DNA of 64,000 bases from Cyanidioschyzon merolae (Eukaryota): NCBI GenBank assembly GCA_000091205.1, contig AP006491.2. One strand, given 5' to 3'. Position 1 is the stretch's first letter; every line of letters begins with the position of its first letter. The notes beneath the pieces were generated by a model. The model had not been told where the DNA came from and did no database searches. It was given only the letters and a program-made list of their open reading frames with translations. This document shows, piece after piece, positions 28,349-63,164 of the stretch. The translations under genes and the position numbers were made by a program.

Positions 28349-28360
28349 TTACATATGTAT
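28337..28360 (+). repeat. Perfect 10-bp-stem hairpin (GTGATTACAT-atgt-ATGTAATCAC) overlapping the stop codon of the Fanzor-like fragment
   Basis: Palindrome read directly from the sequence. Confidence 0.6.
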
Positions 28361-28457
28361 GTAATCACCATGGTCGTGGAGATTTTTTCGTTTTACTGAT
28401 CACCCGTACCCGCCCGCGCCTTGCGGAGCTCTCGCCCAAATCGCTGTCGTTTGCGCT

Positions 28458-33665: not shown

Positions 33666-35402
33666 ATGACCACCGAAATAGTAAAGAAGCAGCCGTCGAG
33701 AGAGGAAGCTTCACTAGACGGCGAAGGAGTGGACGTCGTCATCAACGGTTCCGATCTTCCGCAAGTGATTTGTGCTGCGTCCCTTGCGGGCCTGGGGTAT
33801 AAGGTGCTTCTTCTGGAGCCGAGCGAGACGTACGGCGGCTGCACGAGCGGACCACTTTCTGCAGCGCTGCTCTTTGGGGATCTTGACTCGGCCACGGATA
33901 ACAAACATCTCAAGGGCCCTGTACGCGTCGTAGCGAATGGCGGGAACCGGCTGACGGAGCTGCGAAGCCAAGCGCTTGCAAACGCCTCCGCCTTTGTCCT
34001 CGAGTTGCAGCCGCGCTTCTATTTCGCGGCTGATGCCTTCCTGGACCTTCTCGTCGGCAGTGGGGCGGCTTCGTACCTGTTTTTCCAGCCAGTAGACAGC
34101 TTGTTCTGGTTGCAGGCTTCAAGTAACACGGTTGCAGACACTGTCGTTATCGACGTGCCGTGCACCAAGGCCGCCATAGCGCGCTCCCATGACCTCGGAC
34201 TGACGGAGAAGCGCCTGCTCATGCGTTGCCTGCGCTCATGTTTTGTACTGAGTTCCGCGGCGACCGAGTACGATCCGCATAGCCCTGCAATGGATATAAC
34301 TGATGAGGAGCGACGAGAAATGAACCGGCGTTGGTCCGCGGCGGGAGACTCGGCCACGTTGCTTCAGCAACTCGAAGAAGCGTTCGCGTCGGCGCCCTCA
34401 GACCAACAATGGAAACGCGTTGCGGCGCTAGTACATGATATCTACGCTTGGGGCATCGAGGACATGCCGACGGCTCCCGCGACCTGGCGATGCAGTATCG
34501 ACCGCCTGGAGCGCTTCATTCAATCCGTCATGCGCTTCCACGCTGCAACGCCGTTTCTCTGCTGCAAGTACGGGAGCAATGAGATCATTCAGGCGTTCGC
34601 GCGCAGATGCGCTGTCAAGGGTGGCATCCTTGCAATGGACCGAAGCATTATGGCTTCAGCGGCTTGCGATGCGGAGCAGGGTCCAGACGAGAATGGCGCT
34701 GGGTTCGTAGTAGAGACGAATCACGGTGAAAGAATTTTCTGCAGGATCGGAGTCATCTCACCACAGCACGATTCAAATATCCATGTAGACGCGAAACTGG
34801 TACTTCGCTTCGCCGGGCTCACGAGCGAAGCGCTGCGACTTGGCGAACCAGGGCGTACGAATCGCGCTGCCACTGGCCACGCGTTTTTCATCGCTCGATT
34901 CAACGAGGGCGCGCTCGCCGCAGCGTCATCGTATTCGTCTGCCACGCTGTATATCTGGCAAATCAGTTCTGCGGCGGGTATCTGTATGCCTGGCTATTAT
35001 GTGGTCTATGCGGAATGTGATCTGCAGCGGTTGCCTCGTCAGCAGGTTGCAAATACCGAGTCGACAGCATCCGCTCTGCACACCTTCCGGGGCATGGTGG
35101 CGCACGTGCTTCGCTGCATCGCGCCCGCCGCGTGCGAGGCGTGCGATGACGACGTGGCCGTGCTCGAAAGCGTGTTTGCAGCATATGCCTTTTACGAGGC
35201 TCCCGCACCACCGTCTGGATTTTCCGTTCAAACACGTGATGGCTCAGCGAACGTGTCGGTTCCGTACTCGTACGCTCGGATGGACAGGATCCCGCACGCC
35301 ATCCGTCAAATCCTGGAGCATATCGTAGGCGACGACCAAAGAGCAGCATCATCCTTGGATGTGTTCTTTGGTATATCGCCGCCACCAGAGGGCTCCTCGT
35401 GA
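33666..35402 (+). CDS. Rab GDP-dissociation inhibitor / Rab escort protein (GDI/REP) family protein
   Basis: N-terminal dinucleotide-binding-like VDVVINGSDLPQVICAASLAGLGYKVLLLEPSETYGG and the GDI SCR region (ASYLFFQPVDSLFW...VIDVPCTKAAIARSHDLGLTEKRLLMRCLRS); 578 aa. Confidence 0.6.
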   Translation: MTTEIVKKQPSREEASLDGEGVDVVINGSDLPQVICAASLAGLGYKVLLLEPSETYGGCTSGPLSAALLFGDLDSATDNKHLKGPVRVVANGGNRLTELRSQALANASAFVLELQPRFYFAADAFLDLLVGSGAASYLFFQPVDSLFWLQASSNTVADTVVIDVPCTKAAIARSHDLGLTEKRLLMRCLRSCFVLSSAATEYDPHSPAMDITDEERREMNRRWSAAGDSATLLQQLEEAFASAPSDQQWKRVAALVHDIYAWGIEDMPTAPATWRCSIDRLERFIQSVMRFHAATPFLCCKYGSNEIIQAFARRCAVKGGILAMDRSIMASAACDAEQGPDENGAGFVVETNHGERIFCRIGVISPQHDSNIHVDAKLVLRFAGLTSEALRLGEPGRTNRAATGHAFFIARFNEGALAAASSYSSATLYIWQISSAAGICMPGYYVVYAECDLQRLPRQQVANTESTASALHTFRGMVAHVLRCIAPAACEACDDDVAVLESVFAAYAFYEAPAPPSGFSVQTRDGSANVSVPYSYARMDRIPHAIRQILEHIVGDDQRAASSLDVFFGISPPPEGSS

Positions 35403-36343: not shown

Positions 36344-36579
36344 GACTTGCGGACAGTTCGGGTGATACGGCCGCTTCCAGCGGGTCACAGGAGCGAAGGC
36401 TCTCGACGACCGCCGGGTAAATGAATATCCACGCGCCGATCCCTGCCAGCCCTTTTCGACCGGCCGCTTCTATCGGTTTGCGTTTATCTCGAGGCACACT
36501 TCGAGCGTTAGAAGCTGCCGGACGAGGTTGGCTCCCGTCAGCTCCGCGGGTCTCGTCGTCAGCTCCGCAGGTCTCGTCG

Positions 36580-36822
36580 TCAGATATGGCTGGCGGGGCT
36601 AAAGTCTCGGTTCACGAACTTTATGCGTTTATCGCCACTGGTTGAACTCATCAATGCAAGGAGTCCTCGAACTCGTGCCCTCAGTGCCATGTGCTGCTCT
36701 GACAGCTCTGTGTGCTTTTCTACCGCCGAGGCGCTCCGCTGGCTTCTCTCTATCTCGATCTTCTCAGGTGTAGAGCCCAGATCACTCCTTGGACTTCTCA
36801 TCTCTTCAAAAAATGAACCCAC
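36580..36822 (-). pseudogene. TnpB/Fanzor-like RuvC-III fragment
   Basis: ALRARVRGLLALMSSTSGDKRIKFVNRDFSPASHI parallels ERRAKMRRLLESVSTINDKKLMEFVNRDFNAASNI in the 55055-56128 ORF. Short ORF with no upstream RuvC-I/II. Confidence 0.45.
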
Positions 36823-36899
36823 ATGTTTATGCCGTTAGGTAAGGACCTTACCGGATGGAGAAGGACTTGCACGAGGAAGACTGCACGTGCCCCGGTGTG

Positions 36900-37640
36900 T
36901 CATCGTGTGCTGAACGCTTCAGCGATTCGCTCAGAGGAGCGATCATTACGTTTCACGATAGCAAACACTCCCTCGACGCGGTTGAACGTCGAAGCGTACG
37001 GAGGAATGAAAAGCAGCTCTACTTCCCGATAGAATCGGCAAAAGCTCGAACGCAAGGGCGATTGGTGAAATGCTACGTTGTGTGATAGGTGGACATCACC
37101 AGATGTCAGGCGGAGAGTCTTTAATGATTCGACAAAGTGATTGCTGTCGTATGAGCCTTCTCTACGAGCGAAACTGAGGTCGCCAAATATATCCACTGCA
37201 GCCAGAACGGAGAATATCATTCTTCTCTTCGAGTTTGATCTCTCATATAGCGAGTTGTCCTCTCTGCGAGTAGCCATATACGCTTCGATCGTTTCGTCCG
37301 GAGAAAGTCCAATTGACTGAAAAAACAAACCGTCGTCCCTGTGCTTCTCACCGATCGCGACATTCCAGGAATTCTGTCGTTGCGATTTCGGTGGAGGATG
37401 TTCTCGCTTGAACTAGGACTCTTTTTTGCGACTGTATTCCAGTGTTTTCAGGATCACACGTACATCCTGTTGAGAAACATAGAAGCCCGCGGCGGCTGCC
37501 ATCGTCGCTTTTTCCTTCCGTAACGTGTTCAACGGATCATATTCTACATTGACCGCAGGCACACTTTGAGCATATCGGTCCTCGGCTCGAAGCGCATTTC
37601 CTTCTTTGTTTCGGTGTTCCCGAACCATCTGAGTACAGAG
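36900..37640 (-). pseudogene. Degenerate DDE transposase (Tc1/mariner-IS630 DDE_3 superfamily) remnant
   Basis: C-terminal motif ELLFIPPYASTFNRVEGVFAIVK resembles the DDE_3 tail (LLFLPPYSPDLNPIExVW..VK). The upstream SWNVAIGEKHRDDGLFF resembles the first-D region (W..V.FSDES.F) but with GEK in place of DES. The ORF is broken, and the track starts it at a TTG. Confidence 0.45.
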
Positions 37641-39775: not shown

Positions 39776-41184
39776 CATGACTGTATCATGGCATGCGCAG
39801 CTTCGAGGCGCGCATGGATCAGCCGCAAAGCTGTCTCCCCAGTGAGCAGCAAACGCAAAGTCGCTGCACCGATCGAACCCCAATTCCATAACAGGACCGT
39901 GACTATTTTGGTCTCTGCAGAGGCAAAGCATGCGCTGAATCGCGAAGTCCATAGCGTTGTAGTCGGCAGCTCGATTGCATCTGAGAGCATCCGCTTCCGG
40001 GCATGCCTCCTAGACCAAACCAGACCCGCAACAGACATCGATAGGTGCTGCCACGTTCTCCGTACTGCGTCTAGGGGTAGAGATCGGGGCTGAAGCATTG
40101 GTGCCTGGGGCGAGCCTGCTGTTGCGGCTTGCATGGACGCTCATCATTTGGCACAGTTGCTTATCGTGGCTGGGCTAGTCGCCAACACGAATGAACCTGG
40201 ACAGAGGCGCGGGCGGTCCTCTTTCCACTTCGCATCGCATGCGCAAATCCCGAGACCAAAACGATCCTCCTTCGTACGCATGGGGCGCATACTCCAGCTT
40301 ATATTGCCTCGGCTGATGAGAAAATGCTTCGCGCTCTGAATTCGTCCACATCCGACAATCAGTTTGAGGTACTACACATTGAAGCCCGCATCGCCTCGGC
40401 TGATGAGGCAAATGTTCCACACTTTCAAAGCATCCACGTATAACACTCCATATGAACGCCCACGCGCTCTTTGGACTCAAGCAACCCGCGCCTTCCCGAC
40501 CGTTGCCAGCGTAGCAGCGATACCAGTGGATCACCTCATCGACAGTGACCACCATTCATGGTTGCCACACCCTTAAAAGCGCGTTTCGCGGAGCCACGAT
40601 GCTGCGCACCTCGCTTCCTCAGTGCAGCGTCGGCTTCTGATCTGACACACCTGCCAACACCGGCAAGCGTCTGCGTTCATCGAGCGACGTTGTCGCCTCT
40701 GTGGCGAACGCGCATCAATCCAGCGAGTATCGCGTGTCGCCACGGACGCTTCCGGCACGCTGGACGAACGATAGAGCGTAAGGTATGTCCAGTTTCTCCG
40801 AACACAAGTATGGATATTCGAGCTTGGAACTAGGATACAGAACGACGAACGCTTTCCCAGATGCGGATATCGATCGCTCCGTCCGAGTTCCCGAGCCTGT
40901 CAAACAGAAACAACCCAGCGTCGCTGTGCGCCAATTCGAGCCGCGCACGCTGCGGGCGAAATCGCGGCAGTCGCCCGGGAGTCCGGCGCCGCAGCCGTGC
41001 ACCCGTCCGTACCCATCCACTCGTACTGGGAAGGTGCGCTCGACTGGAACACGCCTCGCCTCGCCTCGCCGTACGGCAACATCGGAGAGTTCTTCAGTCG
41101 GCAGTCTCCCGGAATACTGGAAAGTTTTCTGCTGTCAACTGGTGCGTAGGTAAGGTTTTCGAACCGGGCCTCAGGGAAGGTTTG

Positions 41185-43806
41185 ATGAACAAACGGCCAT
41201 GCTGCTGGTACTGTGGCACCCCAACGGCGGCAGGGGCGTCAGCCTCGGGCGCGTGCCAAGCAGCGGCGCCTGACGTCAGCAGTGCTGCTGCTGCTGCTGC
41301 TGCTGCTGACAGCGAGCACTTGTCGTTCAGCGCTCTTCTGATGAACTGGAGTCGGGCTGTTGTTTGCAGAGGCTGTCAACGAGTTCTCGCCGAGCGAGTT
41401 GTTGACCTCTGCGAAGCGCCGTGCACAAGTTGGTGCGGGCTGCACGCCTGGAACCTCACTAGTGAGCCGGGTGCACCAGAAGTGGGAACTGGCCGAGAAA
41501 GACTCAAAGCGTCTGAGGGCGAGGGGGGAGTTTCTGGCACGGCAGAGTCTGTTGATGCCGCTGCAACGGTGCTGGAAAAGTCGCCGGCGTTGGGGTCCGA
41601 GCTGCTCGAGCTCGGCGACGTCGCCGGAGCCGACCCCGCCGCCGACCGCCTCTTTGAGCACTTTGTGGTAACGCCAGATATGCACTCTGAGCCGTATAGC
41701 TTCCTCGGGTTCACCGGAGCGCCGGAGGATCCGTTTGCATCGCAGGGACTGATCACTTCCGCGTGTTTTCTGCTGCCCCGAGTGGACGCATTTCCGCTCG
41801 TTACGGTACACAAAGTAAGCGGTGCGCTTGCCGAAATGGAGCGCTTGCTCAGCTTTCTGGGGACTTCATCGACGCATTCATCCGTCGTCAAAAACGAACA
41901 CGATCGGGGAACAATGTCTGCCTCGAGTGCGGTGCTGGTGACGCCAAGTCGGTCGCAGACGCCGCTCGAGGATAGCGACCCGTCGGAAGACGAGAACGAC
42001 CTGGAGGCGCAGGAACCTGTGCAGCCCGCTGAGGTGTCATCCTCTGTCTCGACGAGGGGTCAGGCTGGTGCGGAGGGGCGACCATCGCCGGCGATCTCCG
42101 TCCTGCTCGATGAACAGAGCAGCAGCGCCTTTGGGGATGAAGACGCAGCCGCCGGAGCACTGCTGCGCGCCTACGTTCGCGTCTACTTTGTGATTCTGGA
42201 CGTGGTCTACGCGCTCCAAATGGAATCCGAGGCGCTCGAGAAAGAGCTGATCGAGACTGCGCTCGCGATGTACAGGGTTTGCGTCGAGCGCATCTCGCTA
42301 CGAAACCGCATTCCCGAGGCGTTTGCTGTGGCGTGCATCCTCTTGGCATGGGAACGGGTGGTTGTCCGCCATACGCACCGGGTACCCGCGGGGCAAACAA
42401 GCCCCACAGACGGCTGCACGCCCTCGGGTATCGAATCGGAATCTCTGCTCCAGTACCGAGGATGGAATCCAGTCTTCGTGCGACGTGTTGTTGAGGCGTC
42501 AACTCCAGTATGGCCGCAAGCGAGTATTGCACTGGTTTACGATTACATGCGACGGGTTCTGAATACGCTGTTGGAGCGCCGACCAGATACCGTGGAGGCG
42601 ATCAGTCACGAAATGCCGAAATACTGCGCGCTTCTTGGAGTCAGTGCAGCGGTTGCCGATCTCGCGCACAGCATTGCGGAGCAGGCAGTCATCCACGGTG
42701 TGTGCGCTCGGCGTACAAGCGTCAGCGTTTGCGCTGCAGCCATTTATTTGGCGAATCATTTGGAAGACGCTCGACGCATGCCCAGTGGTGCCTCGAACCG
42801 AACGCAGAGCATGGACGGGAGCGCACATGCTGCCGTCGTCCACGATCCCGTCCGGTTAAAGCAGCGTGATATCGCCGAGAAGCTACAGCTGTCGGAAGTC
42901 ACCCTGAGAAAGGCCCATAAGGAGATTCTGACACATCTGGATGTTGTGCTGCCAGCTGGCTACCGGCCATCGGGGGTGCTCCGGCGATGTCTGCCGCCCA
43001 GCTATCAGCGCGTTGCCGCAAGCGCACTTCAGCGACTGGCAACGCAAGAAGCACTCGACACAAGTGGTCAGAAACTCGCGAATACGGGCGACGGTATCGC
43101 TCGCGGCCCAGGAGCGCCCACAGATCCAGCAGCCACCACCGCCAACACCGGCGAGCACAGGACACACGTCCTGCCCATGGACGCCAACGTCGCTGCTTCG
43201 CGTTCGTCGCCAGCGTCTCTGGAAGCAACGTTGGACACGTGTCGCGAGACGTCCATCCAAGCCTCCCAGCAACCGGTGCACATGGTGCAAGCATCGAACG
43301 AGCACCAGTGCAGCGCTTTGGCAGTCACAGGGGCGCCCCCAGGTACACCGTCCACTACCGAGGATTCGGCCGCCAGCGTACAAGCGCTGCCACGAGCACT
43401 CGGGCCGGCGGCGTTGTTACGCCAGTGCCGTATCACAACGTTGCCCCATACGCCTGGTGCCGCAAGCTTGCGAGCGCTTCTGTACCAGGTCGGCTTATCA
43501 ACGCCGCTCGTGGATGCTATTGTTGACGCCGCCCTGGCGCGAACGTTGCCTGTTCCGATTGGGTTGCTGTTGAACCTCATCGACAGCGGCTGGGTACCCG
43601 TCTGGGCACAGGCGTCTGCTGCGACCTGCAACCGGACACTCGAGGACGCCACACAAACCGCCAGCGAGCGTCATGCCCGAGAAAGCTGTCTAGCACCGCC
43701 AGCACCGCCACCGCCACCGCCACCGCCACTACCGCGCTTGCCGAGTGCTCGCGCCAGACTCACCCCCATCCGTGACCAGTCTGGCGCGCTAAACACGAAT
43801 CCATGA
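41185..43806 (+). CDS. TFIIB-related factor (Brf1/TAF1B-like) with zinc ribbon and two cyclin-like repeats
   Basis: N-terminal CxxC...CxxC (CCWYCG...VCRGCQRV) split by an Ala-rich insert; TFIIB-type cyclin repeats (ELIETALAMYRVCVERISLRNRIPEAFAVACILLAWE; KYCALLGVSAAVADLAHSIAEQAVIHGVCARRTSVSVCAAAIYLANH); long Pro- and Ala-rich C-terminus. The ATG at 41185 (MNKRPCC) was chosen over the track start at 40861. Confidence 0.45.
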   Translation: MNKRPCCWYCGTPTAAGASASGACQAAAPDVSSAAAAAAAADSEHLSFSALLMNWSRAVVCRGCQRVLAERVVDLCEAPCTSWCGLHAWNLTSEPGAPEVGTGRERLKASEGEGGVSGTAESVDAAATVLEKSPALGSELLELGDVAGADPAADRLFEHFVVTPDMHSEPYSFLGFTGAPEDPFASQGLITSACFLLPRVDAFPLVTVHKVSGALAEMERLLSFLGTSSTHSSVVKNEHDRGTMSASSAVLVTPSRSQTPLEDSDPSEDENDLEAQEPVQPAEVSSSVSTRGQAGAEGRPSPAISVLLDEQSSSAFGDEDAAAGALLRAYVRVYFVILDVVYALQMESEALEKELIETALAMYRVCVERISLRNRIPEAFAVACILLAWERVVVRHTHRVPAGQTSPTDGCTPSGIESESLLQYRGWNPVFVRRVVEASTPVWPQASIALVYDYMRRVLNTLLERRPDTVEAISHEMPKYCALLGVSAAVADLAHSIAEQAVIHGVCARRTSVSVCAAAIYLANHLEDARRMPSGASNRTQSMDGSAHAAVVHDPVRLKQRDIAEKLQLSEVTLRKAHKEILTHLDVVLPAGYRPSGVLRRCLPPSYQRVAASALQRLATQEALDTSGQKLANTGDGIARGPGAPTDPAATTANTGEHRTHVLPMDANVAASRSSPASLEATLDTCRETSIQASQQPVHMVQASNEHQCSALAVTGAPPGTPSTTEDSAASVQALPRALGPAALLRQCRITTLPHTPGAASLRALLYQVGLSTPLVDAIVDAALARTLPVPIGLLLNLIDSGWVPVWAQASAATCNRTLEDATQTASERHARESCLAPPAPPPPPPPPLPRLPSARARLTPIRDQSGALNTNP

Positions 43807-50039: not shown

Positions 50040-50260
50040 TGTTGTCGACTTCAGGTTATCCAGGAGCAGAACGAGCCTCAGAGGCTGCACCACAAGTTTG
50101 GATTGCGACAGCGCCTCGAGTCCCGTCTTCGGCACCGCACATTTTTCGGATATGAATGGCGGCGTCCGGGTTGCGGTTCGCGACCTCCATGCGTTTTTTG
50201 CCTCTGGTTCAACGCCTTAACGCAAGGATTGCTAGAACTCGTGCCCTATGTGCTACTACA
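50040..50260 (-). pseudogene. Highly degenerate TnpB/Fanzor-like RuvC-III remnant
   Basis: Reverse-complement translation gives GKKRMEVANRNPDAAIHIRKMCGAEDGTRGAVAIQ, parallel to MEFVNRDFNAASNIRRCAVMAKRAPELTRVNF. The adjacent DNA (50196-50250) is ~75% identical to 36640-36690, the equivalent part of the 36580 copy. Frameshifts are present. Confidence 0.35.
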
Positions 50261-50664
50261 GTCTCGTCATCGTCCCATCGGACAAACATCGGTCCTCTCC
50301 TATCTCTCGTCTCCATCTTCTTCTTCTTCGTTACTTGCTCCTCTCTGCTATATGGTCAGCGACACGAGGATTTTTTCTTTTTGTTTCTGTTGAATCCAGC
50401 GACATCGAATCCTCTGGGATCCGCGACTTCTACGTCCATACATTTCCCCTGGATTTCCATTTCTTCAAATCAAGGCACTTGCATTGCGTCAGCTATAGTA
50501 CGCGAAATAGCATCTGACGACACGCACCTCAGCGTGGCGCCTCGTGGAAATGAACGCTTGTAGAAAGAATCGGCGTGCGAACGTATCGACTCGGTGGCGT
50601 AGACGCCGTCGCTGGCGCTCCGGTTAGCCGGCGTCGCGCAGCAGCGCCTGCGCCACATGAGCTT

Positions 50665-52992: not shown

Positions 52993-54666
52993 CTAAAACG
53001 TTGCAGAGTCCTCTAGGTCGTCGTCCGGCAACGCCACGAGATCTCTGTACCCGCTCAACAAATCCGCGAAGCGTTGCCGCTGCCGAATGATGCGCCAACG
53101 ATTACCCTGAACCATGAGCTCGCCCGGTAGCACCTTCATATTGTAGTTGCTCGCCATGGACATGCAGTATGCTCCGCTGTCCATTACAGCGAGACCCGTG
53201 CCGGGTGCGGGTAGCGGAAGCACCCGCGCTTTTCCCAAGAAATCACTCGATTCGCAGACTGGCCCCACGATGTCGTATGTCGCCATTTGCTCGCCGGCTA
53301 CTCCGGGCTCAGTCAGGGTGATCAACTGGTACGCTCCGTACAGCGCTGGTCGAATCAGCTCCGCCATCGATCCGTCGACGACGATGAAGCGCTTATCGCC
53401 ATTCCGTTTGACTCCAATGACCCTACACACCAGGATGCCGGCATTCCCAATGAGGGAACGCCCCGGCTCAATGATGAGGGTTAGGTCGCGTCCCGCTAAA
53501 CACGGCCGAATCGCATCGATGAGCTCCTGCGGGGTCGGGATGCGTTCGCCTTTCCGCTCATAATCGATCCCGAGACCACCACCGATATTCAGGAAGCGAA
53601 TACTGTGGAAACCACGTGCACTGATTTCGTCGATCACTTGAAGCATGGTCACAACATTGTCGTGAAAAAGTTCCACTTTTTTGATGGTGGACCCCAGATG
53701 CGAATGGACACCGACCAGCTCGACCTGTGCTTCATTTTGTCTGATTCGATCCAGAAACCAGCGCAGTTGATCGGTGCGAATACCAAACTTGCTCGTTGCA
53801 AGCCCAGTGCTCACATACGGATGCACCTGGGGATCGATGTCAGGGTTGATGCGGAGCAGGACGCGTGCCTTGCGTCCTTCGCGCTTCGCCGCCGCTAAAA
53901 TATTCTCGAGATCGAACTCCGAGTCGACGTTGATGAGACACTCTGCTCGAACGGCAAGGGCGATTTCCTGAGGCGTTTTCCCGTTTCCGTTGAAGACCGT
54001 GCGTCGCATATCGAAGCCGGCGAGTCGCGCTAGGCGCAGTTCGTTGCCACTCACCAGAACTGCCCCACATCCGCGTTCACGCACAAGCTGCATAATCATC
54101 AAGTTGTTGTTGGCCTTGACAGCGTAGCCGATGATGGCATCCATACCTGCCAGCGCTTCCTGGTACGCTCGCACGTTCGCCTCAATGCGGCTCTGCGAGT
54201 AGAGGTAGAATGGCGATGCCTCAGGTCCCAGGGCGTCTTGAATGTCCTTCACGCGCACCTCCTCGCAGTACAGGAACCCGTCGCTTCCCACTTCGAACTG
54301 GGGTGCTGGATTCTGCACCGCAGGCGCTGCAACGACCTGCATTCGAAGCAGCTGCGAGGCCTGCAGGCCGCTAGACGAGGCTTGACTCTCGACGCCGTGA
54401 AAAGGTCGACGGCACCAAGCCCCGATCGTCCTCCGTCGCCGTCGTGAGCACGCACCCGACCCCAGACGCAACCAAGACGCCGACGCCTTGGCGTATACTC
54501 CTACTGCAAACATAGCCGCCCGAAGCAAGTCCAGTGCGGCTATAAAACGAACGTTGTGACGAGTTGGAAGCGTAGGCACACGCGTCCTGCCGTGTCTACC
54601 AAAAGCGAAATTTGCGCTGCGGGTGCGCGGCGCCGGTTTTTTTTTCATTGGACAAAAGGTTGCCAC
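52993..54666 (-). CDS. lysA: Diaminopimelate decarboxylase (LysA; PLP-dependent Orn/DAP/Arg decarboxylase family) with N-terminal extension
   Basis: PFYLYSQSRIEANVRAYQEAL...IGYAVKANNNLMIMQLV (PLP Lys in YAVKAN), GSG..VVSGNEL, HSHLGSTI, GGGLGIDY, and the C-terminal beta-barrel EPGRSLIGNAGILVCRVIGVK...CESSD. 557 aa. Confidence 0.8.
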   Translation of the reverse strand: MATFCPMKKKPAPRTRSANFAFGRHGRTRVPTLPTRHNVRFIAALDLLRAAMFAVGVYAKASASWLRLGSGACSRRRRRTIGAWCRRPFHGVESQASSSGLQASQLLRMQVVAAPAVQNPAPQFEVGSDGFLYCEEVRVKDIQDALGPEASPFYLYSQSRIEANVRAYQEALAGMDAIIGYAVKANNNLMIMQLVRERGCGAVLVSGNELRLARLAGFDMRRTVFNGNGKTPQEIALAVRAECLINVDSEFDLENILAAAKREGRKARVLLRINPDIDPQVHPYVSTGLATSKFGIRTDQLRWFLDRIRQNEAQVELVGVHSHLGSTIKKVELFHDNVVTMLQVIDEISARGFHSIRFLNIGGGLGIDYERKGERIPTPQELIDAIRPCLAGRDLTLIIEPGRSLIGNAGILVCRVIGVKRNGDKRFIVVDGSMAELIRPALYGAYQLITLTEPGVAGEQMATYDIVGPVCESSDFLGKARVLPLPAPGTGLAVMDSGAYCMSMASNYNMKVLPGELMVQGNRWRIIRQRQRFADLLSGYRDLVALPDDDLEDSATF

Positions 54667-54764
54667 AGGCCAGCGATCCCCGACTAGGCCTTTTTATCAG
54701 CACGCGGTGAAGCAGCCATCGATCCACGCCCTACTTCCAAGTTCCAAAACCCATAGATCTTCTC

Positions 54765-54810
54765 GGGTATGCTGGTGGTTTCATAATGTCTATCGTACGC
54801 CGAGCCTGCC
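54765..54810. repeat. ~45-bp dispersed repeat copy (left boundary of the AT-rich island)
   Basis: gctggtggtttcataatgtctatcgtacgccgagcctgccgtgagcg is ~75% identical to 57676-57722 (tctggtcgtttcatacgtcctagcatgtgccgagcctaccgaaagcg). Confidence 0.5.
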
Positions 54811-55054
54811 GTGAGCGTTTAAAATAGCGCGTAAAGCACCTCTGCAGTCGTGGCACGGAGACAGAACTGGGTTGCCATACCAGAGAGGGCGTCGGCTCGA
54901 GACCAAGCTCATCCATGCCAAAGCACACTAAGCCTATCCGAAACTGCGCCCTTGACCACCACCACCACCAGCAGCAGCAGCAGCAGCAGCCGCGAACGCT
55001 TTCCAAGCATCAAACGCTGCATAACCGGTGCACAGTAGCGGCGACCGACGCGAC

Positions 55055-56128
55055 CTAGACGAAATATCTCCCGCCGACATGCAGACGCCTAAAGGTCTTT
55101 AACGACCTGCCCCATACGAATGGCTTCAGCTTCCCCTTGTACAATTCGGCCCTGAGAGGTTGTCCAACAAAGTTGACTCGTGTCAACTCCGGGGCTCTCT
55201 TTGCCATTACTGCACATCTCCTGATATTGCTGGCGGCGTTAAAGTCCCGGTTCACAAACTCCATAAGTTTCTTGTCATTGATTGTACTTACTGATTCAAG
55301 TAGCCTTCGCATTTTCGCCCTCCTTTCCATTTGGTCGTCTGTCAGCCGTCCGTACTTTGCTATATCCTCAGGGCTCCGCTGGCACTTTTCCATATCGACC
55401 CTCTGGGGTGTACAACCCAGTTCATGGTGCGTATACGATGTTCGGAACTCATCTACAGGTATTGTAACAAAACGCCGTGCGCACTCTATGTACGTTCTCG
55501 TAGTTCGAGCTGGTGTACACCCGTTTTGGGTCTTCCAGCGCCCTGCTCCGTATGCTACTACGAGCCTCTGACTTTCATCCTCTTTGAGGGCACTCAACGG
55601 ACTGAAAAAGTTCGCGAACGCCCGCTGCCTCCCACAGCATAGATTCATACGCAAACGAGCACACCGGGGCTTTGTATACTCTTTCCACAGCGCCTCCCAG
55701 TGAGCAGCACGAACTTCACTGAACTCCCGAAAAGCATCAAAGTCCGCTCCGCGGCTCGTCACCTCGCTCAAGGCTTCCAGGTGATCCTTCATTCCTGAAT
55801 TCCATGTCTCAGTTTTCTTTCTTGCATTCCTTGTACCGGATTCTCGATAGTACCTTGCTCTCGAGAACCTCAACAGACGCATGTCTTTCTGACGCAAGTT
55901 GCCGGCAGTACCATCTTCCGCACGTTTGGGTACTGCGATGGTTATGATATTTGTGTTTCCGGGGTTCACACCTACCGCAAAGTCGTCACCGTGCACTTTC
56001 TGCATCGCAGGATCCGCCACCTTCTCATCTTCATGCTTTGTCACGGGCGCAGCCGAGGGCGGAACTGGACGATCCGCCTTCAAGCGCCGATAGCGTACAC
56101 ACATGGCTACTCCATCGGTTTCGATCAT
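55055..56128 (-). CDS. TnpB/Fanzor-like RuvC nuclease-fold ORF (eukaryotic OMEGA/IS605-OrfB homolog); RuvC-I Asp replaced by Asn
   Basis: RuvC-I-like FAVGVNPGNTNIITIA (cf. GIDPG); bridge and RuvC-II region LVVAYGAGRWKTQNGCTPARTTRTYIECARRFVTIPVDEFRTSYT (cf. vaiGdw...V..VdEyrTSk); degraded Zn-finger (GCTPQ...KCQRS); RuvC-III MEFVNRDFNAASNIRR (cf. nRDvNAAiNI). Sits in a distinctly AT-richer ~2.8-kb island. Confidence 0.55.
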   Translation of the reverse strand: MIETDGVAMCVRYRRLKADRPVPPSAAPVTKHEDEKVADPAMQKVHGDDFAVGVNPGNTNIITIAVPKRAEDGTAGNLRQKDMRLLRFSRARYYRESGTRNARKKTETWNSGMKDHLEALSEVTSRGADFDAFREFSEVRAAHWEALWKEYTKPRCARLRMNLCCGRQRAFANFFSPLSALKEDESQRLVVAYGAGRWKTQNGCTPARTTRTYIECARRFVTIPVDEFRTSYTHHELGCTPQRVDMEKCQRSPEDIAKYGRLTDDQMERRAKMRRLLESVSTINDKKLMEFVNRDFNAASNIRRCAVMAKRAPELTRVNFVGQPLRAELYKGKLKPFVWGRSLKTFRRLHVGGRYFV

Positions 56129-56339
56129 CCCAGTGAGTACTTTTGTTTGCTCACTTTGAGACGTTTGAAATCGAAGATATGCTTCCAGTACGTCTCCCGG
56201 TTTTCACCGGAGAACTCCTACCTGTTAACATTGAACTCGGGACTGGTCTCCTTTATGATGCCTTGGAGGACTCTGGAGCTGATAGTCACAAAATGTGACT
56301 TGATGGTGCACAACGGAACGCCATTGAAGCGCTTACCCA

Positions 56340-57101
56340 TTAGGAGAGCCTTCCGTCCCTCCCACTCTTCATGTTTTCCTCTCTCAGCTTCATCTCCGCC
56401 TTGCGTTCGAGTTCTCGATTCAGGAATACGAAATAGAGCAGGATGATGTGATAACATCTTTTATCATCTTTTTTTTTCATATCTGATGCCTTTTCTGCTG
56501 GATTCGCCATTCCCAAGACTGGACAGTGCTCTTGTACAACCGCACGGATTACAGAAGCTTCATTCGTGCTCTCGTTTGGCGCCTTCTTGTCGACAAAATC
56601 GATCTCATCTTCATGCTTGCGATCGTTCGTGATGCCGTTGATAATCGCCCATATTCCTTTGCGAGAGATGCACGGGTAACGTGCAAACACGGCGCGTATC
56701 ATGAAACGTTCGAGGTTCATAGTCGAATGGTTCTTCAGGTTCGTGATGTACTTCATCGTTCCGTATATGTAAATATGACGGTCACCCCTGTATCGAGTAC
56801 CGTTGAAGCTGTAGAAGGGATGTTTTTCGTGGAGGGCGTGAACCCACTCATTTTCCTTTCGCGTTGCCTCTGTAGCAAGCATGAGGTGACGAATAAAGAT
56901 CATGTCGAAGAACTCGTCCGGAATCTCGACCGTTTCCATGTGCTTCACGTCGTGATACATCTCACTCCCCGAATGCATCAGTCCTGACGACGCCTTGACG
57001 ATGGTCTTGGAGTACGAGTCGACACGGTTCCTAATGGCCTCTCGCAACTTTTCCTTGTACGGATCCTGGATATGTTCAAGAAGAAAGCTTTTCGCCACCA
57101 T
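56340..57101 (-). CDS. Hypothetical ORF directly upstream (same strand) of the Fanzor-like ORF; possibly its N-terminal part separated by an intron or frameshift, or an accessory gene
   Basis: 253-aa ORF with the same AT-rich composition as the Fanzor-like ORF; KLREAIRNRV weakly recalls the TnpB WED-domain (R.vyN..l) motif. By-eye similarity to ORF 26934-27638. Confidence 0.25.
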   Translation of the reverse strand: MVAKSFLLEHIQDPYKEKLREAIRNRVDSYSKTIVKASSGLMHSGSEMYHDVKHMETVEIPDEFFDMIFIRHLMLATEATRKENEWVHALHEKHPFYSFNGTRYRGDRHIYIYGTMKYITNLKNHSTMNLERFMIRAVFARYPCISRKGIWAIINGITNDRKHEDEIDFVDKKAPNESTNEASVIRAVVQEHCPVLGMANPAEKASDMKKKDDKRCYHIILLYFVFLNRELERKAEMKLREENMKSGRDGRLS

Positions 57102-57662
57102 CTCGTCGTACAGCCGTCTTTCTTGTCGCCTTCGACATAGGGCCTCTCCCGTTTTGATTCTTTCTCTCTTCCGTTTCTTCTGGACTTGGAATTTTTTTTG
57201 TTTTTTCTGGTAGCCGGCGACACTGGGCCTCCAGGATTGTCGACTTGCTCCTACATAACTTTCCTTTTTTAGTTTTTTTAAAAAGAATACTCTTTAAACG
57301 CTTCTCTTATATACTGCGAAAAAACACTCGAGTATTTTTACTTGAGGGTTGAAACAGAAATGAACTGAAAACTATACTTTGCTACGACCTCAACGGAAAT
57401 CCGACTTTTACAGCTGAGCAACACGCTCCTGCTCAGGATCACGTTTCCCTTCAACAGCGGCTTACGTGTCGCGTCTCACGCCTGCCTGATCCCCCAGTTG
57501 CGCTCACCGGGCGCGATTCTCTTTTTCATAGACAAGACGTTTACTTGTGCCAGCATTCTCCGATTACGCGCATTTTTCTTTTCTTACCATTTTTTATGTG
57601 TTTTTTTCAGTGTGCGGTGACGTATCCATCAACCCCCTACTCCCAAGTTACATCATCTAAAC

Positions 57663-57722
57663 TTCTTCTCTGATATTCTGGTCGTTTCATACGTCCTAGC
57701 ATGTGCCGAGCCTACCGAAAGC
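57663..57722. repeat. ~35-45-bp repeat: direct with 54765-54810, inverted with 61130-61197
   Basis: acttcttctctgatattctggtcgtttcatacgtcctag has a reverse-complement match at 61160-61197 (acttcttctcGgatattctggtcgtttcatacgtccta, 1 mismatch in 37 bp). Confidence 0.7.
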
Positions 57723-57749
57723 GACAGCAATGGCGCCTATAGAACATGC

Positions 57750-60700
57750 GCTGCAATGCATTGCATGCGCCGCCAAGACCAAGCCCGGAGACTAACCAAC
57801 AAGTCACTTGCAGCCTTCCGAGAAATGATAACGAATTATCAGTACATTAACGAAGAAGAGACACCAATAGAGGACTGTACAATAGGAAAAGAGACCCAAC
57901 CAGATACGGAGAAGGAGGCACAAAGTCCTCATGATCCACTTAGATGCAAAATATCCAGAGAGAGCAGCTCAGGAAAGAGCCCGAAGAAGAAGAAGGCCAA
58001 CGAGAAAAAATAGATGAATAGAAAAAAGAACTCCCGAACGAGCCCATCACAACTTATTCCCCGGAAAGAGCACCCCAGCGGGAACTCAAGAAAACCGTCA
58101 CCAAACCCAGTCACCTGCTCACAGCGCTGAAGATCCGAAATGCCGTGCATGCAAATCTTTAGACCAATTGGCACGCGAGTTTGTAGATGGGAATCAGAAG
58201 ACTGCCAGAGAACTGGGACTGCTTGCACCAGATCGCAACAGTTTCAAACCTCAGTACCTCAAACGACGTACCAAAACTCGGATTGTTGAATGCTACCGAC
58301 TCAACAAGATCCTCAACCGCACCGACATACGCACCAACGCCGGAGACAAGGAAGCGAAGGCAGCGCTACCGGCGCTACAGGCACAACATGAGGACGCTAT
58401 CAAAAGAAAGAAGAAACTTTCCAGAGAAGACAAACGAGAGGATCGAAACCGCAAAATCGACTCCCTGACGGAATTTATGCTCGAGAGCACCAACGAAGAT
58501 GAGACCTGGCGCTCCATTCGATCGAGACTGGACCCACCAAAAAAGTGCCTGGGGCTCACACCAATCGTTTATAAGGAAGCGCTGAGGACGGAGCGTGCCT
58601 CAGTGAATGAGGCCTGGACGGACCACGGCACAGAGCTGCATGAAGACGCAACTGGGCACTGCCGAAACCGAATCTATTGGCACCAATATGCTGCACAACT
58701 ACCGCGCCTCGACCCGGTACCGGAATGGAACGACCCAATCTTCTGGCCTGAATCTGTTCGGGCCCTGCTATGCTCAAGCAACCGCAAAACACCTGGCATT
58801 GACGGTATCCCTGCGGAGTGGATGAAACTGGTGACCCCAAAAGACGAGACAACAGGGACACCATCGATACCAGATGAACCTGACACAATCTTAGGCAAAC
58901 GCCTTGTGGAGCTCATTCAACGTATGTTCGAAGAAGCGTACATCCCTGATATATGGAGGACTGTCGAGGTCGCACCGATCCTCAAAAAGGACTCCCACAC
59001 ACACAAAGACATGAACATCTACCGGACTATTCGCCTCATCCTGTCAATCATGAATCTACTTTGCGCCATGCTCACGAACCGGATCCAGAGGCGCCTCGAG
59101 GAACGCAAGTTCTTCGCCCCAGAACAGGCTGGATTCCGGAGCCGCGATGAGTGCATGAACCATGCCCTGACCCTCATTGAAGTGGCGCAACGTCGCTTTA
59201 TTCGTGACCGACAACCAACTTACGTATGCTTCACCGACTTCCGAAAGGTCTTTGACACGGTCCCGCATGATGCTCTCTTTTTGAAGATGGAACGAGCCGG
59301 AGTCTCCAGAAAGTGCTTAGCGTTCTTCCGTGCGCTCTATGCAGACTCGTGGATGCGCATCCGACTGGGCGACAGCTCAAGAACCCCTTGTATAAGAATA
59401 CGCCGTGGACTACAAAAGGGCGAGCGCGCATCCCCGCTCCTTTTCAACATCTTCATCAACGATCCGCTGAAAAACTGCAGACAATACGGGCTTGAGGTGC
59501 CGTGGATAGACTGGGGAGATGCCCGATGAGGAGCCCTCACATAGGAACCGCCTCGCAGGCCTTCTACTTGCGGACGATGTCGTGCTGTTGGCACCCGCCC
59601 CGGAAACGCTTGCGGCTAGCATGCAACAAGTCAGCACCTGGGTCGATCGCTGGGAGATGAACGTAGGAGCATCGAAGTGCGGCGTCATGGCCATCCATGG
59701 AGACTCGCAGCGCATTCGCAATCGCTCGTGGCGGTTGCAGAATCAGGAAATTCCGATCGTGGAAAACTATCGCTACCTGGGGGTCGGTCTAACGCCGACG
59801 CTCGACGAAAAGGCACACGTCGACGAGATGATCGCCAAGATGCATAGACGTACAGCGATCGCACGTCCATTCCCATCCGACCCCTCTATCTGCATAGCAA
59901 TTCGTACCAGGGCACGAAGGATGTGTATCATCCAGCCTGCGACCTGGGGTGCTGAGTGATGCGGCATGAACCACACAAATGCCTCGCGTCCGCAGACAGC
60001 CGCCAACAGGGCAATGCGACTCGTTGTCGTTGTTTGATGCTCAGTGCAGAGCAGAGCAACCACCGCGCTGGCACTCGGACTTGAACTCCAAATACCCTCG
60101 ATAGAAGCGATAGCAGCAGGCTGCCGGGCACGTATATGGGCCAAAAGGGTCCACCAAGCGCACCTGGTTCAGTCGGAGTTTCATGCAAACCCCAACGCAC
60201 CGCAAGATCACTTGGATGAAACCAACGCATATTTGGCTGAAGCGCCTCTTAGGCGAAAATGCGCTCGAATCGTTCCCCAGGAATGTAGAAGACTTCAGAC
60301 GCCTGAAGCGAACGGTCCAAACGCCAATATGGGAAAGTAGACACGGTACCAGTCGCGCGAGTAACGCCGGCTTGACTCTATACCGGAAATAGAACCTATT
60401 ATACACATGCAAGTACTGGTTGGAGGCGCTGGAATTCCCCGGACTTGCTCGAGGTACCCAGTGGCTCGCCAAAATCCGCGTTGGTGGCTTCTGGCTACCA
60501 GCACCGGCTCTAAGCCGTATAGGAATACTGGAATCGCACTGGGAGTCACACTGTCCCTGCTGTGGAGACGAGAGCCCCCGAGACGCTGACACATTTAGGC
60601 CTACAGTGCCCGCACTGGAAGCAGGAGCGCAGCGAGCTCCTTGGAGGACAGCAGCAGCTGGGCATCACCATGATAGTCGAAGGCCGGACACTCACTCTGA

Positions 60701-61100
60701 GTGTAGCACTGGCAACTGGTGGTCCGCTAACGGAGCCTCAGCGCTCATTAATGGCGAACAAACGCAAATGCTACCTTCTAGGCGGAAGGTCCAACGAATC
60801 GGATGCGCATACGGGTCCAGTGCTCTCTGCGTCTACCCACTGTGGTGGGTTTCAAGCACAAACCCGCATTGCCAACCGACAACAACGCGCTCCATGCATG
60901 ACCAGGAAGGAGAGAGGCAGCTCCCAGAATTCATCCTAACAACCAAGTTTCTCCAGCGTGTCGTGCAGCGAAGGCAAGCCTCCATCCGCAGACTGTCCGA
61001 GCACGAACTGACGACGAGACCCGATTCTACGTCGGGTGAAGCACGTCTCGAGCCGACGCCCTCTGAGGTATAGAAAAGCTGTTCTAGCTCTATGAACTAT
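57750..61100 (+). mobile_element. Non-LTR (LINE) retrotransposon remnant, 5'-truncated and frameshifted
   Basis: Contains RT ORFs 58168-59529 and 59519-59959 (next entry) and a C-terminal Cys/His motif in ORFs 60420-61073 and 60562-60939 (HCPCCGDES; ETLTHLGLQCPHWKQERSEL, cf. the non-LTR ORF2 tail E..EH.L..CP....R). No APE endonuclease is visible upstream. Confidence 0.75.
58168..59959 (+). pseudogene. LINE reverse transcriptase (RT domains 0-7) interrupted by a frameshift near 59520
   Basis: RT motifs: TPGIDGIPAEW (motif 0/1), ILKKDSHTHKDMNIYRTIRLILSIMNL, FFAPEQAGFRSRDECMNHALTL, VCFTDFRKVFDTVPHD (motif A), RGLQKGERASPLLFNIFINDPLK (motif B), LLADDVVLLA (motif C, FADD-type) in the next frame. 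Confidence 0.8.
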
Positions 61101-61129
61101 CTGCTCCAGCATTTAAGGCGCAAAGGCGG

Positions 61130-61197
61130 ATACGGAGGGGCAGGTACAAGGCACACACAATAGGACGTATGAAACGACCAGAATATCCGAGAAGAAG
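61130..61197. repeat. Inverted copy of the 57663-57722 repeat (right boundary of the LINE-containing segment)
   Basis: See the 57663-57722 entry. Confidence 0.7.
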
Positions 61198-61421
61198 TAT
61201 AGGTAATCTAACTTGGAGGGAGGGGGTTTTATGGATACTTCGCTGCGCACTGTAAAAAAAAGTGAGCAAAGAAAAGTGTGAAAAGAAACATACGCCCATT
61301 CGCCTCCACAAAGGCGCTGCGCGCACACAATACAGCGGCTGCAGCGGCTGCAGCATCATCCGCAGCGCTTAACGGCCTCTGTTCGTGTCCTCGGTGTGAC
61401 GATTCTTGAGGTACGGTATCC

Positions 61422-63164
61422 ATGTCGTCACTGCCAACTTCGTCACGGCTTATGAGTTTGAGGGAACGTACGGAAATACCGGTGGTCGGAGATGACGGGA
61501 GCCATATCGACCCGTCAAACTCGTGTTCACCAAGGCGGAGCCTGTCCAACAGCAGTCGTGGATACGAACGAGCATCCCGGGGTCTGACACGGGTCGCGTC
61601 CGCGTCGTCAGCGCTGTCGCTTGTGTCGAACCCGAACCTGTCGCTGTTGGACTCTGAGCTTCAGGTTGTAGAAGACTGTAAGGAGTTCCCGGTCGTGGTC
61701 GTTGTGGTCGGTGCATCAGGAGATCTGGCCCGCAAGAAGACGCTGCCGGCCTTGTTCTCGCTCTTCTACCACAACCTGCTGCCGCTCAGTTTCGCAGTCG
61801 TCGGATATGCCCGCTCAAAGCTCTCCGTAGAAGAGTTTCGAAGTTCAGTGAGCTCGAATCTAGTCTGTCGCGTCGGAGATCGCGAGTGCTGTGAGGCGAA
61901 GACGAGGGCCTTTCTCGAACGCTGCTTCTACTTCTCTGGGCAGTATGGCTCTCTGGAAGACTGGTTGAATTTTGATCGCTGGCTTTCCGAAGACATCGAG
62001 CCGCGTATGAACCAAAGCGACACAGCAACTCGGGGGGCACGACGCGCGCCCGGGCGTCTGTTTTACCTGGCGATCCCGCCGTCGGTATTCGCGGAAACGC
62101 TGCGCAGTATCAGTCGCGGCGCCATGGCACCCGAGGAGCTTGGCGCCTGGACCCGAGTCATTGTCGAGAAACCATTTGGGCGAGACTCAGAGTCCTACAT
62201 GGCGCTACGTGACCTAGTCGCAGAATGCTTTCCGGAGGAGGCACTTTACCGCATTGATCATTACGTGGGCAAGCCACTGGTTGCGAACCTGACGACACTT
62301 CGACTTGGGAACTTTGTTTTTGATGCACTCTGGAATCGCCACTGCATTGAATCCGTGCAAGTGGTGTTCAAGGAGGATTTCGGGGTCGAGGGTCGCGCCG
62401 GCTACTTCGACGCATACGGCATCATTCGAGATATCCTCCAAAACCATTTGCTGCAGGTCCTCAGCATTATTGCGATGGATCCGCCGGCGTCGCCGCACGC
62501 TGCCGATATCAACGAGGCAAAACTCCGGCTACTGTACGACATCAAACCGTTGCATGCGAAGGATTTTATCATCGGCCAGTACGATCGATATCGGTCGGAG
62601 CGAGGCGTGCCGAAAGACTCGTGCACCGCCACGTTCGCAGCGTGTGTTGTCCAGATCGATAACGAACGCTGGCGAGGTGTCCCTTTTGTTATGCTCGCTG
62701 GGAAAGCGCTCGACGAGCGGAAGGTTTACGTGAAGGTCGCGTTCCACGAGACACCGAATCATACGTTTATACCGGAGGAACTGCGTGACAAGCGCAACAC
62801 GTTTTACATTGAAATCCAGCCGCGTCCCGCGGTCGAGCTGAGCTTTATCACCAAAACTCCCGATCTGGAGGGACGCGTTGTCCAAACCAAGCTCGACTTG
62901 GTCTACAACGAGAGCTTCAGTGCGGAAGCCCAGGACATGCCGGACGCCTACGAGCGGCTCATTTCGGACGCCATTGTGGGCGACCGCACACTCTTCATCA
63001 GCGACGCCCAGATATCGCGCGCATGGGAGCTGTTCGACCCTGCCCTGAAAGAACTGGAGCGAGATCCACCAGTTCAGCCAGTTATCTATCCGTATGGTAG
63101 TAAGGGACCGATTCTGCCCGAGACGCTGATCAAGAAATACATGGCAGGCAGGATGCAAGACTGA
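61422..63164 (+). CDS. G6PD: Glucose-6-phosphate 1-dehydrogenase with ~70-aa Ser-rich N-terminal extension
   Basis: NADP-binding VVVVVGASGDLARKKTLPALFSL; YARSKLS; substrate motif RIDHYVGKPLVANL; C-terminal NELVIRVQPDEAVYLK-like IEIQPRPAVELSFITK, YERLISDAI. 580 aa, single exon. Confidence 0.9.
   Translation: MSSLPTSSRLMSLRERTEIPVVGDDGSHIDPSNSCSPRRSLSNSSRGYERASRGLTRVASASSALSLVSNPNLSLLDSELQVVEDCKEFPVVVVVVGASGDLARKKTLPALFSLFYHNLLPLSFAVVGYARSKLSVEEFRSSVSSNLVCRVGDRECCEAKTRAFLERCFYFSGQYGSLEDWLNFDRWLSEDIEPRMNQSDTATRGARRAPGRLFYLAIPPSVFAETLRSISRGAMAPEELGAWTRVIVEKPFGRDSESYMALRDLVAECFPEEALYRIDHYVGKPLVANLTTLRLGNFVFDALWNRHCIESVQVVFKEDFGVEGRAGYFDAYGIIRDILQNHLLQVLSIIAMDPPASPHAADINEAKLRLLYDIKPLHAKDFIIGQYDRYRSERGVPKDSCTATFAACVVQIDNERWRGVPFVMLAGKALDERKVYVKVAFHETPNHTFIPEELRDKRNTFYIEIQPRPAVELSFITKTPDLEGRVVQTKLDLVYNESFSAEAQDMPDAYERLISDAIVGDRTLFISDAQISRAWELFDPALKELERDPPVQPVIYPYGSKGPILPETLIKKYMAGRMQD

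Follow-up and report, generated by a model that had tools for sequence, protein, structure and literature searches.

Repeats around a Fanzor Pseudogene of Cyanidioschyzon merolae: Very Probably LINE 3' Tails, with a Fanzor Family that May Move with the LINE Machinery

Introduction

A stretch of 64,000 nucleotides (nt) from chromosome 9 of Cyanidioschyzon merolae 10D, hereafter the window, contains an island (54637-61302) in which Fanzor-like open reading frames (ORFs) and reverse transcriptase (RT) ORFs are accompanied by three copies of a short repeat, two of them direct and the third inverted. This arrangement raises the question of which element the repeats belong to: a DNA transposon carrying the Fanzor gene between terminal inverted repeats (TIRs), one of several readings suggested in an original prediction made from the sequence alone, or the neighbouring long interspersed element (LINE), which is a retrotransposon without long terminal repeats (non-LTR). 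The answer reached here, with high confidence in its two parts taken jointly, is that the three repeats are copies of a core that is conserved within the last 220-530 nt of one C. merolae LINE family, and that the island is made of four clustered inserted units, lying between two divergently oriented host genes: a short LINE-tail element (copy A), a Fanzor module, a LINE-tail fragment (copy B) and a LINE that ends in its own tail (copy C). The repeats do mark the boundaries of mobile elements, as had been proposed, since the tail is the LINE 3' terminus, and the suggestion of clustered insertions was also correct.

The components of the island are known and catalogued. Bao and Jurka (2013, PMC3627910) described CMe-1A, a Fanzor1 family with a 3169-bp consensus and ~150 copies ~80% identical to it, which has no TIRs and was left with its class unknown and its target site duplications (TSDs) undetermined; the 5' 635 bp of CMe-1A correspond to another unclassified element, TE-N2_CMe, present in ~70 copies. 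An earlier survey of this genome (Nozaki 2007, PMC1955436) had counted 26 non-LTR retroelements and eight class II elements, and had also listed a "novel interspersed element" of 3.2 kb, present in 253 copies and containing a WSV486-like ORF. This last element is probably the same as CMe-1A. What is new is that Fanzor 5' ends are tied to complete LINE termini, and that a composite of LINE and Fanzor exists at two loci.

Extent and Identity of the Repeat

The 35-nt core of the repeat occurs exactly at 57661-57695 (+), in copy B, and at 61164-61198 (-), in copy C, where only its degenerate position (K) differs, as had been noted; no match to this core is expected by chance (100 shuffles). Copy A resembles the core only loosely. 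The three copies, originally taken to be ~35-45 bp long, are real and have the orientations described for them, but the similarity is far longer: B and C share 75 nt at 85% identity and ~150 nt at 77% (E=1e-26), A and B share 122-149 nt at 69-70% (E=3e-18), and A and C share 71-106 nt at 72-75%. The real unit ends ~100-120 nt past the core, at a T9 run in copy A (54637-54645, + strand), at 57520 in copy B and near 61302 in copy C. Furthermore, two copies lie outside the island: copy D (33417-33618, -), a diverged short LINE-tail retroposon, and copy E (40743-40891, +), a diverged LINE-tail fragment.

The published 3169-bp CMe-1A consensus (Additional file 2 of Bao and Jurka 2013) was aligned to the window by blastn. 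Its nt 5-255 match copy A (54651-54901) at 70%, its nt 84-189 match copy B (57636-57739), its nt 65-534 match the reverse strand of 60772-61240, where the LINE has its final ~470 nt, copy C included (64% over 481 nt, E=6e-41), and its nt 648-3166 match the minus strand of the Fanzor region (57515-54999) at 84.5%. Copies A, B, D and E all align to consensus nt ~5-257, and further CMe-1A fragments are found in the window at 27802-28343, 36431-36784 and 50080-50535. By blastn the repeats are therefore identified with the published TE-N2_CMe/CMe-1A consensus, and these alignments indicate that the repeat is the core of TE-N2_CMe and that TE-N2_CMe is a LINE 3' tail in reverse complement. In these terms, copy A (54637-54903, -) is a complete short LINE-tail retroposon, recognized by its consensus match, tail motif and A-run; copy B (57520-57745, -) contains the 3'-terminal ~225 nt of a LINE tail, recognized by its consensus match and its junction; and copy C (60772-61302, +), whose counterpart by homology is nt 65-534 of TE-N2_CMe in reverse complement, forms the 3' tail of the LINE itself. 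The main gain is thus one of classification, because the nature of TE-N2_CMe and of the CMe-1A 5' arm had been left open by their describers in 2013, and no statement that either is a LINE tail was found in the literature searched. A known RNA gene was ruled out as the identity of the repeat, since Rfam and tRNA scans of the window returned no match.

Polarity and Dispersal of the Tail-Bearing Elements

From the positions at which all five window copies agree, a degenerate pattern was derived; a scan of hot-spring metagenomes with it gave at least 120 stretches, and 130 metagenome loci (referred to by L numbers) were mapped against the CMe-1A consensus and the LINE. The search for the core beyond this locus, which the original prediction had called for, thus revealed a genome-wide family that is not confined to the island. 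Among the matches listed, the tail ends at its 3' side with "...GTAAACGTTTTGTCAATG" plus A5-9, followed by unrelated flanks, at ~45 distinct sites, and at 15 of 45 of these tail ends the 3' flank recurs, over at least 10 nt, 150-720 nt upstream, compared with 2-6 in six offset controls. The TSD matches reach 12-15 nt, for example ATGGTATACGAG around a 5'-truncated copy in L042. A short tail family of ~265-300 nt always opens, among the listed matches, with "CTCGAGCCGACGCC" right after the TSD; copies A and D open with the same sequence, as the TSD-flanked members of this family do, and copy A ends in A9 beside the 5' flank of a decarboxylase gene.

This family has the attributes of a short interspersed element (SINE), namely a 3' terminus in common with a LINE, a discrete length, an A-tail, TSDs and no coding capacity, and the attributes of LINE insertions (a defined A-rich 3' end, variable 5' truncation and TSDs) are found in the family, though not in the window copies. 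Judged by sequence, TE-N2_CMe, together with the CMe-1A 5' arm, behaves as a candidate LINE-dependent retroposon. Tail-bearing units of the family spread by target-primed reverse transcription, which leaves a short A-run at one end, truncated or family-specific 5' starts at the other, and a target duplication of 12-15 bp. The A-runs, the TSDs and the 5' start of the short family all argue for this process and not for transposition by TIRs.

That the repeats are TIRs of a Fanzor-carrying DNA transposon, accompanied by one internal copy, had been suggested in view of the repeat layout; Fanzor1 genes do ride in TIR transposons elsewhere (PMC3627910), B and C are indeed inverted and 77-85% alike, and older Fanzor copies of the same genome adjoin remnants of a DDE_3 transposase. 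Nevertheless, B and C enclose the LINE, not the Fanzor, and belong to two separate tail-bearing units placed head to head. The repeat has a fixed polarity and is the LINE's own 3' tail, with an A-run, 5' truncation and solo copies flanked by 12-15-bp TSDs of varying length; both the LINE and the CMe-1A consensus, which has no TIRs (PMC3627910), contain it at one end only, no transposase was detected in the island (Pfam), and the DDE_3-linked Fanzor copies lack this repeat. A TIR origin is thus extremely improbable, and that part of the original prediction is abandoned. A and B look direct and B and C look inverted only because tail-bearing units lie head to tail and head to head, respectively.

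A host function for the repeat, as a cis-regulatory module (promoter or 5' untranslated region (UTR) element), was also considered, given that copies A, C, D and E all adjoin gene starts. However, the A-runs, the TSDs, the position at a LINE terminus and at least 120 dispersed copies show mobile DNA, and in an intron-poor, gene-dense genome nearly any tolerated insertion is near a gene start, so that this explanation is very unlikely, although a secondary use of tail copies as promoters is possible. A few tens of nt separate the 5' end of copy D from the downstream ATG (33666) of a GDI/REP gene (ORF 33666-35402, residue for residue BAM80086.1 of C. merolae 10D), and, because of this proximity, the promoter or 5' UTR of GDI/REP (BAM80086) is probably within retroposon sequence. 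Copy E, on its part, overlaps the listed start of a TFIIB-repeat ORF (40861-43806).

The LINE

The RT ORFs lie, as predicted, between copy B and the inverted copy C. They belong to a degenerate non-LTR retrotransposon that extends from 57786 to ~61302 (+) and whose retroelement identity is given by RVT_1, detected in 58168-59529 (E=1e-13) and in 59519-59959. This LINE is 81-85% identical to an annotated protein ("retroelement, alive [C. merolae 10D]"), its next-best matches being Tx1/L1-like RTs; it contains frameshifts, and a CCHC-like motif is present in 60562-60939. A database look-up of the annotated 10D retroelement proteins for their genomic context found nothing on record.

Comparison of LINE copies (L130 1475-5422, L133 1-3394, L135 2-1083 and window 57786-61302) revealed two 5' variants, "alpha", with a 751-nt 5' region, and "beta", with a 41-nt alternative start, which is the one found in the window and in L088; the 5' boundary at 57786 is common to L088, an independent locus. 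At full length the LINE measures just ~4.2 kb, and Pfam detected no endonuclease domain (APE or REL) in any frame fragment of ~4.2-kb full-length copies at E<=1; its loss is possible, all examined LINE copies being degenerate. By eye, a stretch "...IGFVSWNICG..." was found that is reminiscent of the first APE endonuclease motif; a Lys-rich region comes after it, which would fit a deletion of the domain.

The Fanzor Module

The Fanzor-like ORFs (55055-57101, -) lie between the direct copies A and B, in agreement with the original prediction, and are part of a CMe-1A Fanzor1 module (54999-57519, -; 84.5% to the consensus over 2.5 kb) that corresponds to CMe-1A nt ~636/648-3166, without the usual TE-N2 arm. 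The ORF is split into fragments (57101-56340, 56457-56218 and 56128-55055), and by tblastn the match of the module to the published Fanzor1 protein CMe-1 (aa 1-733, 74-79% identity) is broken into four frame segments and contains two stops. The VDEFRTS and NRDFNAA motifs are kept, and RuvC-I reads GVNPG where the consensus has GADPG, an Asp-to-Asn change. The frame breaks, the two stops and this substitution indicate that the window Fanzor is a pseudogene. Neither a Pfam search nor a PDB sequence search with the Fanzor ORF gave a match, so the assignment to Fanzor1 rests on Bao and Jurka's alignment.

The module ends just past nt 3169 and is followed, in most copies, by GT-rich low-complexity sequence and then host DNA. 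This simple sequence varies, being (GCT)n(GGT)n in the window and (GGCGGT)n, (GGTATC)n or (GGT)n elsewhere (L075, L024, L131, L063, L015, L038), and the length of the window microsatellite differs between strains (variants in L075 and L024); the GT-rich sequence could belong to the element, be a tail added by the RT or reflect a preference for certain targets. A suspected resemblance of the Fanzor 3' end to the LINE tail ("CGCTGGC...CGTTTT...TGAAA") was rejected, because shuffled sequences reached the score in 474 of 2000 trials. A search for TSDs of at least 8 nt around four complete CMe-1A copies detected none, in agreement with Bao and Jurka (PMC3627910). The flanks of one complete copy (L137, ~800-836 and ~4240-4270) contain a 9-nt inverted match (GAGTCCGCC / GGCGGACTC) and no direct repeat, the match being probably due to chance.

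Copies A and B, which are direct and lie 2.9 kb apart on either side of the Fanzor module, could be LTR-like ends of one mobile tail-Fanzor-tail unit, and in L127 a short tail indeed lies downstream of a Fanzor module in the same orientation. The 1.2-kb spacer of L127, however, is unique DNA with a long ORF, seen only in orthologous contigs, and unrelated host DNA comes after other Fanzor 3' ends; moreover, copy A belongs to an independent family of short elements, of which it is a complete copy, and is only ~70% alike to copy B. Such a unit is accordingly most improbable, if slightly less so than a TIR transposon, and an LTR retrotransposon was rejected because A and B, 70% alike, are separate units that flank a Fanzor pseudogene rather than gag/pol.

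Internally deleted derivatives of ~600 bp, in which consensus nt ~787-1062 are joined to ~2818-3136, were found in the window (27802-28403, +, and 50080-50535, -) and in L018, L019, L020, L039 and L096; they are 63-70% alike and have the common ends "CTTTCA..." and "...TTTTTCGTNTCACTG". The ~290 nt at the Fanzor 3' end are kept in these derivatives, and could fit a needed cis or RNA element; RNAalifold applied to 31 diverged Fanzor 3' regions gave no consensus structure for an omega-RNA. A CMe-1A subfamily in which an ~80-bp segment of the Fanzor ORF (nt 2117-2196) is tandemly duplicated or triplicated was also observed (L038, L047, L023, L132, L136, L137).

Junctions between Fanzor and LINE Ends

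Across loci, the Fanzor module behaves as a separate unit whose 5' end is constant (consensus ~636, "ATCRCGCTCGGTGAG..."), and full-length Fanzor 5' ends almost always adjoin a complete terminus of the LINE family, in one of three ways. In the first, the Fanzor 5' end is head to head with a full LINE 5' end, the junction being identical in L133/L134 and in L135, two loci with different outer flanks (SMC and CcmE, respectively) whose Fanzor parts are 94% and LINE parts 99% alike. In the second, which is the published consensus layout, it is head to head with the TE-N2 5' end (L131/L132, L137, L114, L099 and L110). In the third, the A-run of a tail directly precedes the Fanzor 5' end, head to tail, at four distinct loci (window copy B, L022/L094, L026/L127 and L037/L046); in the window, the A-rich end of copy B, "...GTCTATGAAAAAGA", directly adjoins the 5' end of the module. 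Fanzor sequences truncated at the 5' side (from nt ~700, 2223 and 3063) also come after complete A-runs. A LINE-family terminus is present at the Fanzor 5' boundary in 5 of 6 loci that were not chosen via the repeat (the window and five protein look-ups), and one Fanzor module, in L018, adjoins non-LINE sequence. No report of a C. merolae Fanzor family repeatedly joined to LINE ends was found in the literature searched.

In L033 (9851-10784), a Fanzor copy is interrupted, at consensus nt 2241/2245, by a head-to-head pair of tails (TE-N2 nt 3-680 forward and nt 256-65 reverse) whose A-tails both point outward; this pair shows cleanly the same twin-priming-like geometry as copy B and the LINE. 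At the SMC locus, the same Fanzor copy has different upstream partners among metagenome samples (L136 981-5891 versus L133 1-5975, the same SMC gene): a full LINE placed head to head in L133/L134, and, in L136, an inverted second Fanzor that makes up a palindrome whose breakpoints are at nt 1038 and 775. This difference could be genuine structural variation or else an artefact of fold-back during assembly. A comparison of whether the TE-N2 arm and the Fanzor part diverge together gave an uninformative star-like pattern, with 4 copies.

The identical junction between the reverse-complemented LINE 5' end and the Fanzor 5' end at two loci with different outer flanks, together with the same relative orientation of Fanzor and LINE in the window, raises the possibility that the island was a single composite retrotransposon (an antisense Fanzor plus a LINE, as in L133 and L135) that was later rearranged, with A and B being secondary, or with the B/C layout being brought about by an inversion in which inverted tails recombined. 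Against it, the window LINE is a different 5' variant that starts at 57786, a boundary common to an unrelated locus; copy B and a 40-nt spacer lie between Fanzor and LINE; no TSDs are present; and L092, which seems to be the unrearranged state of the locus, is probably a chimeric contig. This history is unlikely, though it deserves clearly more weight than the TIR, LTR-like and regulatory explanations. L092 was likewise discarded as an allele with an intact LINE-Fanzor composite, as its LINE is 90-96% and its unique DNA 99-100% identical, which makes a chimeric or collapsed contig probable.

Setting of the Island

On its left side the island adjoins a diaminopimelate/ornithine-type pyridoxal phosphate decarboxylase gene (52993-54666, -; Pfam Orn_Arg_deC_N and Orn_DAP_Arg_deC), whose real start is probably downstream of the listed GTG, and on its right side a glucose-6-phosphate dehydrogenase gene (61422-63164, +) that is residue for residue BAM80094.1 of C. 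merolae 10D. Copy A is followed by a ~50-nt stretch and by an (ACC)5(AGC)7 microsatellite (54955-54990, no strand), read from the sequence just beyond the Fanzor module 3' end, and the 40-nt spacer between copy B and the LINE (57746-57785) is found in no other LINE copy. The island had been called AT-rich, which is correct for 55-58 kb, the only part where GC content (0.46-0.52) is clearly low compared with ~0.57 for the window, but not for the LINE 3' half. Taken alone, the island is an ordinary nest of catalogued repeats in a well-studied genome.

Proposed Explanation

The junction between copy B and the Fanzor module and the head-to-head layout of copy B and the LINE would have been made by the LINE machinery, through template switching, twin priming or insertion into an A-tail; alternatively, a later inversion between tails might have produced them. 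The complete ends on both sides of the junctions fit template switching or twin priming between two RNA templates, and they also fit composites amplified as LINE-type RNAs with an antisense Fanzor; it is from the junctions that we infer a twin-priming or template-switch mechanism. The unclassified Fanzor family may therefore be viewed, on the evidence of its boundaries, as one that may move with the LINE machinery. A fuller proposal, put forward tentatively and with somewhat less than even confidence, is that CMe-1A (150-250 copies) propagated by LINE reverse transcription, as an antisense 5' passenger, as a template-switch co-template, or both, and that it came from an older DDE_3 (mariner-like) transposon. 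By the passenger route, the Fanzor would be carried antisense at the 5' side of a LINE or of a LINE-tail element, giving the "LINE | Fanzor" and "TE-N2 + Fanzor" composites; by the co-template route, it would be joined to LINE RNA by template switching. As a bolder extension, the Fanzor nuclease may be of use to the LINE, in which Pfam detected no endonuclease domain.

Several observations weigh against the assignment of the repeats to LINE tails and of the island to clustered LINE-driven insertions. A clean LINE 3' end should include the A-run and the last ~41 nt, both of which are missing from copy C. The identity between the LINE tail and TE-N2 is only 64%, suggesting that TE-N2 comes from a related LINE subfamily and not from the window's LINE, and the similarity of the TE-N2 5' ~100 nt to the LINE 5' end is not significant, so that a derivation of these nucleotides from that end was dropped. 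No convincing TSD was found around copy A, the Fanzor module, the LINE or the whole island, nor around the chimera in L088, and for this reason the order and number of insertion events at the locus are not fixed. Finally, most comparison loci are metagenome contigs picked for carrying the repeat, and at least one of them (L092) looks chimeric inside the LINE.

The older origin is suggested by a DDE_3 (Tc1/mariner/IS630-type) transposase remnant (Pfam E=8e-10) located directly upstream of, and on the same strand as, an old Fanzor fragment. Such relics were observed in the window (36431-37328, -), in L114 (6779-7431) and in L119/L026, L032/L099, L033/L101 and L039/L085/L041, with the order DDE_3, 80-120 bp and Fanzor from consensus nt ~869 in at least six distinct loci. 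Their transposases are 33-55% identical to one another, and a search for TIRs in the relics found nothing convincing. They resemble the remains of an ancient Fanzor carrier of mariner-like type, which Bao and Jurka (PMC3627910) do not list for C. merolae, and suggest a change of vehicle to the LINE.

If the proposal were true, this would be the first Fanzor carried by a retrotransposon. Were the link mechanistic, it would change the account of how RNA-guided nucleases spread in eukaryotes, because the logic of homing after excision fails for copy-and-paste elements, and the genetically tractable C. merolae would offer a test system.

Comparison with Known Systems

In stringent LINE/SINE pairs, such as UnaL2 and UnaSINE1 of the eel, both partners have a common 3' tail that is recognized by the LINE reverse transcriptase. 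The short elements of C. merolae (~265-300 and ~635 nt) are alike in having the LINE terminus, the same A-run and TSDs, although they have no evident head derived from tRNA, 5S or 7SL RNA; the short family consists of nothing more than the final ~265-300 nt of the LINE, and its likeness to LINE/SINE pairs is one of sequence.

Twin priming by L1 gives rise to 5' inversions, and template switching to chimeras such as the U6-L1 pseudogenes. Copy B with the LINE, and the pair in L033, resemble the former in being head-to-head units with their 3' ends outward, and the joining of complete 3' ends to 5'-truncated second sequences (A-runs followed by Fanzor at ~636, ~700, 2223 and 3063) resembles the latter. 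In classic twin priming, however, the inverted piece comes from the same RNA and lies upstream, whereas in C. merolae it is a second copy of the terminal tail.

Fanzor1 genes are found elsewhere inside Tc1/mariner DNA transposons, for example PUl-1 (Bao and Jurka 2013, PMC3627910), and the old C. merolae Fanzor copies directly downstream of DDE_3 remnants are similar to these. The DDE_3-linked copies are older and have no 35-bp repeat, whereas the island Fanzor belongs to the younger CMe-1A family, linked to the LINE tail. A further comparison is with TE-N2_CMe and CMe-1A themselves (Repbase, PMC3627910), which come from the same genome and are the same sequences as the window repeats; their describers left class and TSDs open, whereas here the TE-N2 part is very probably the reverse complement of a LINE 3' tail that has an A-run and TSDs. 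In the CMe-1A consensus the Fanzor is joined to TE-N2; in the window its partner is a tail fragment of opposite orientation, which it meets at the A-tail end.

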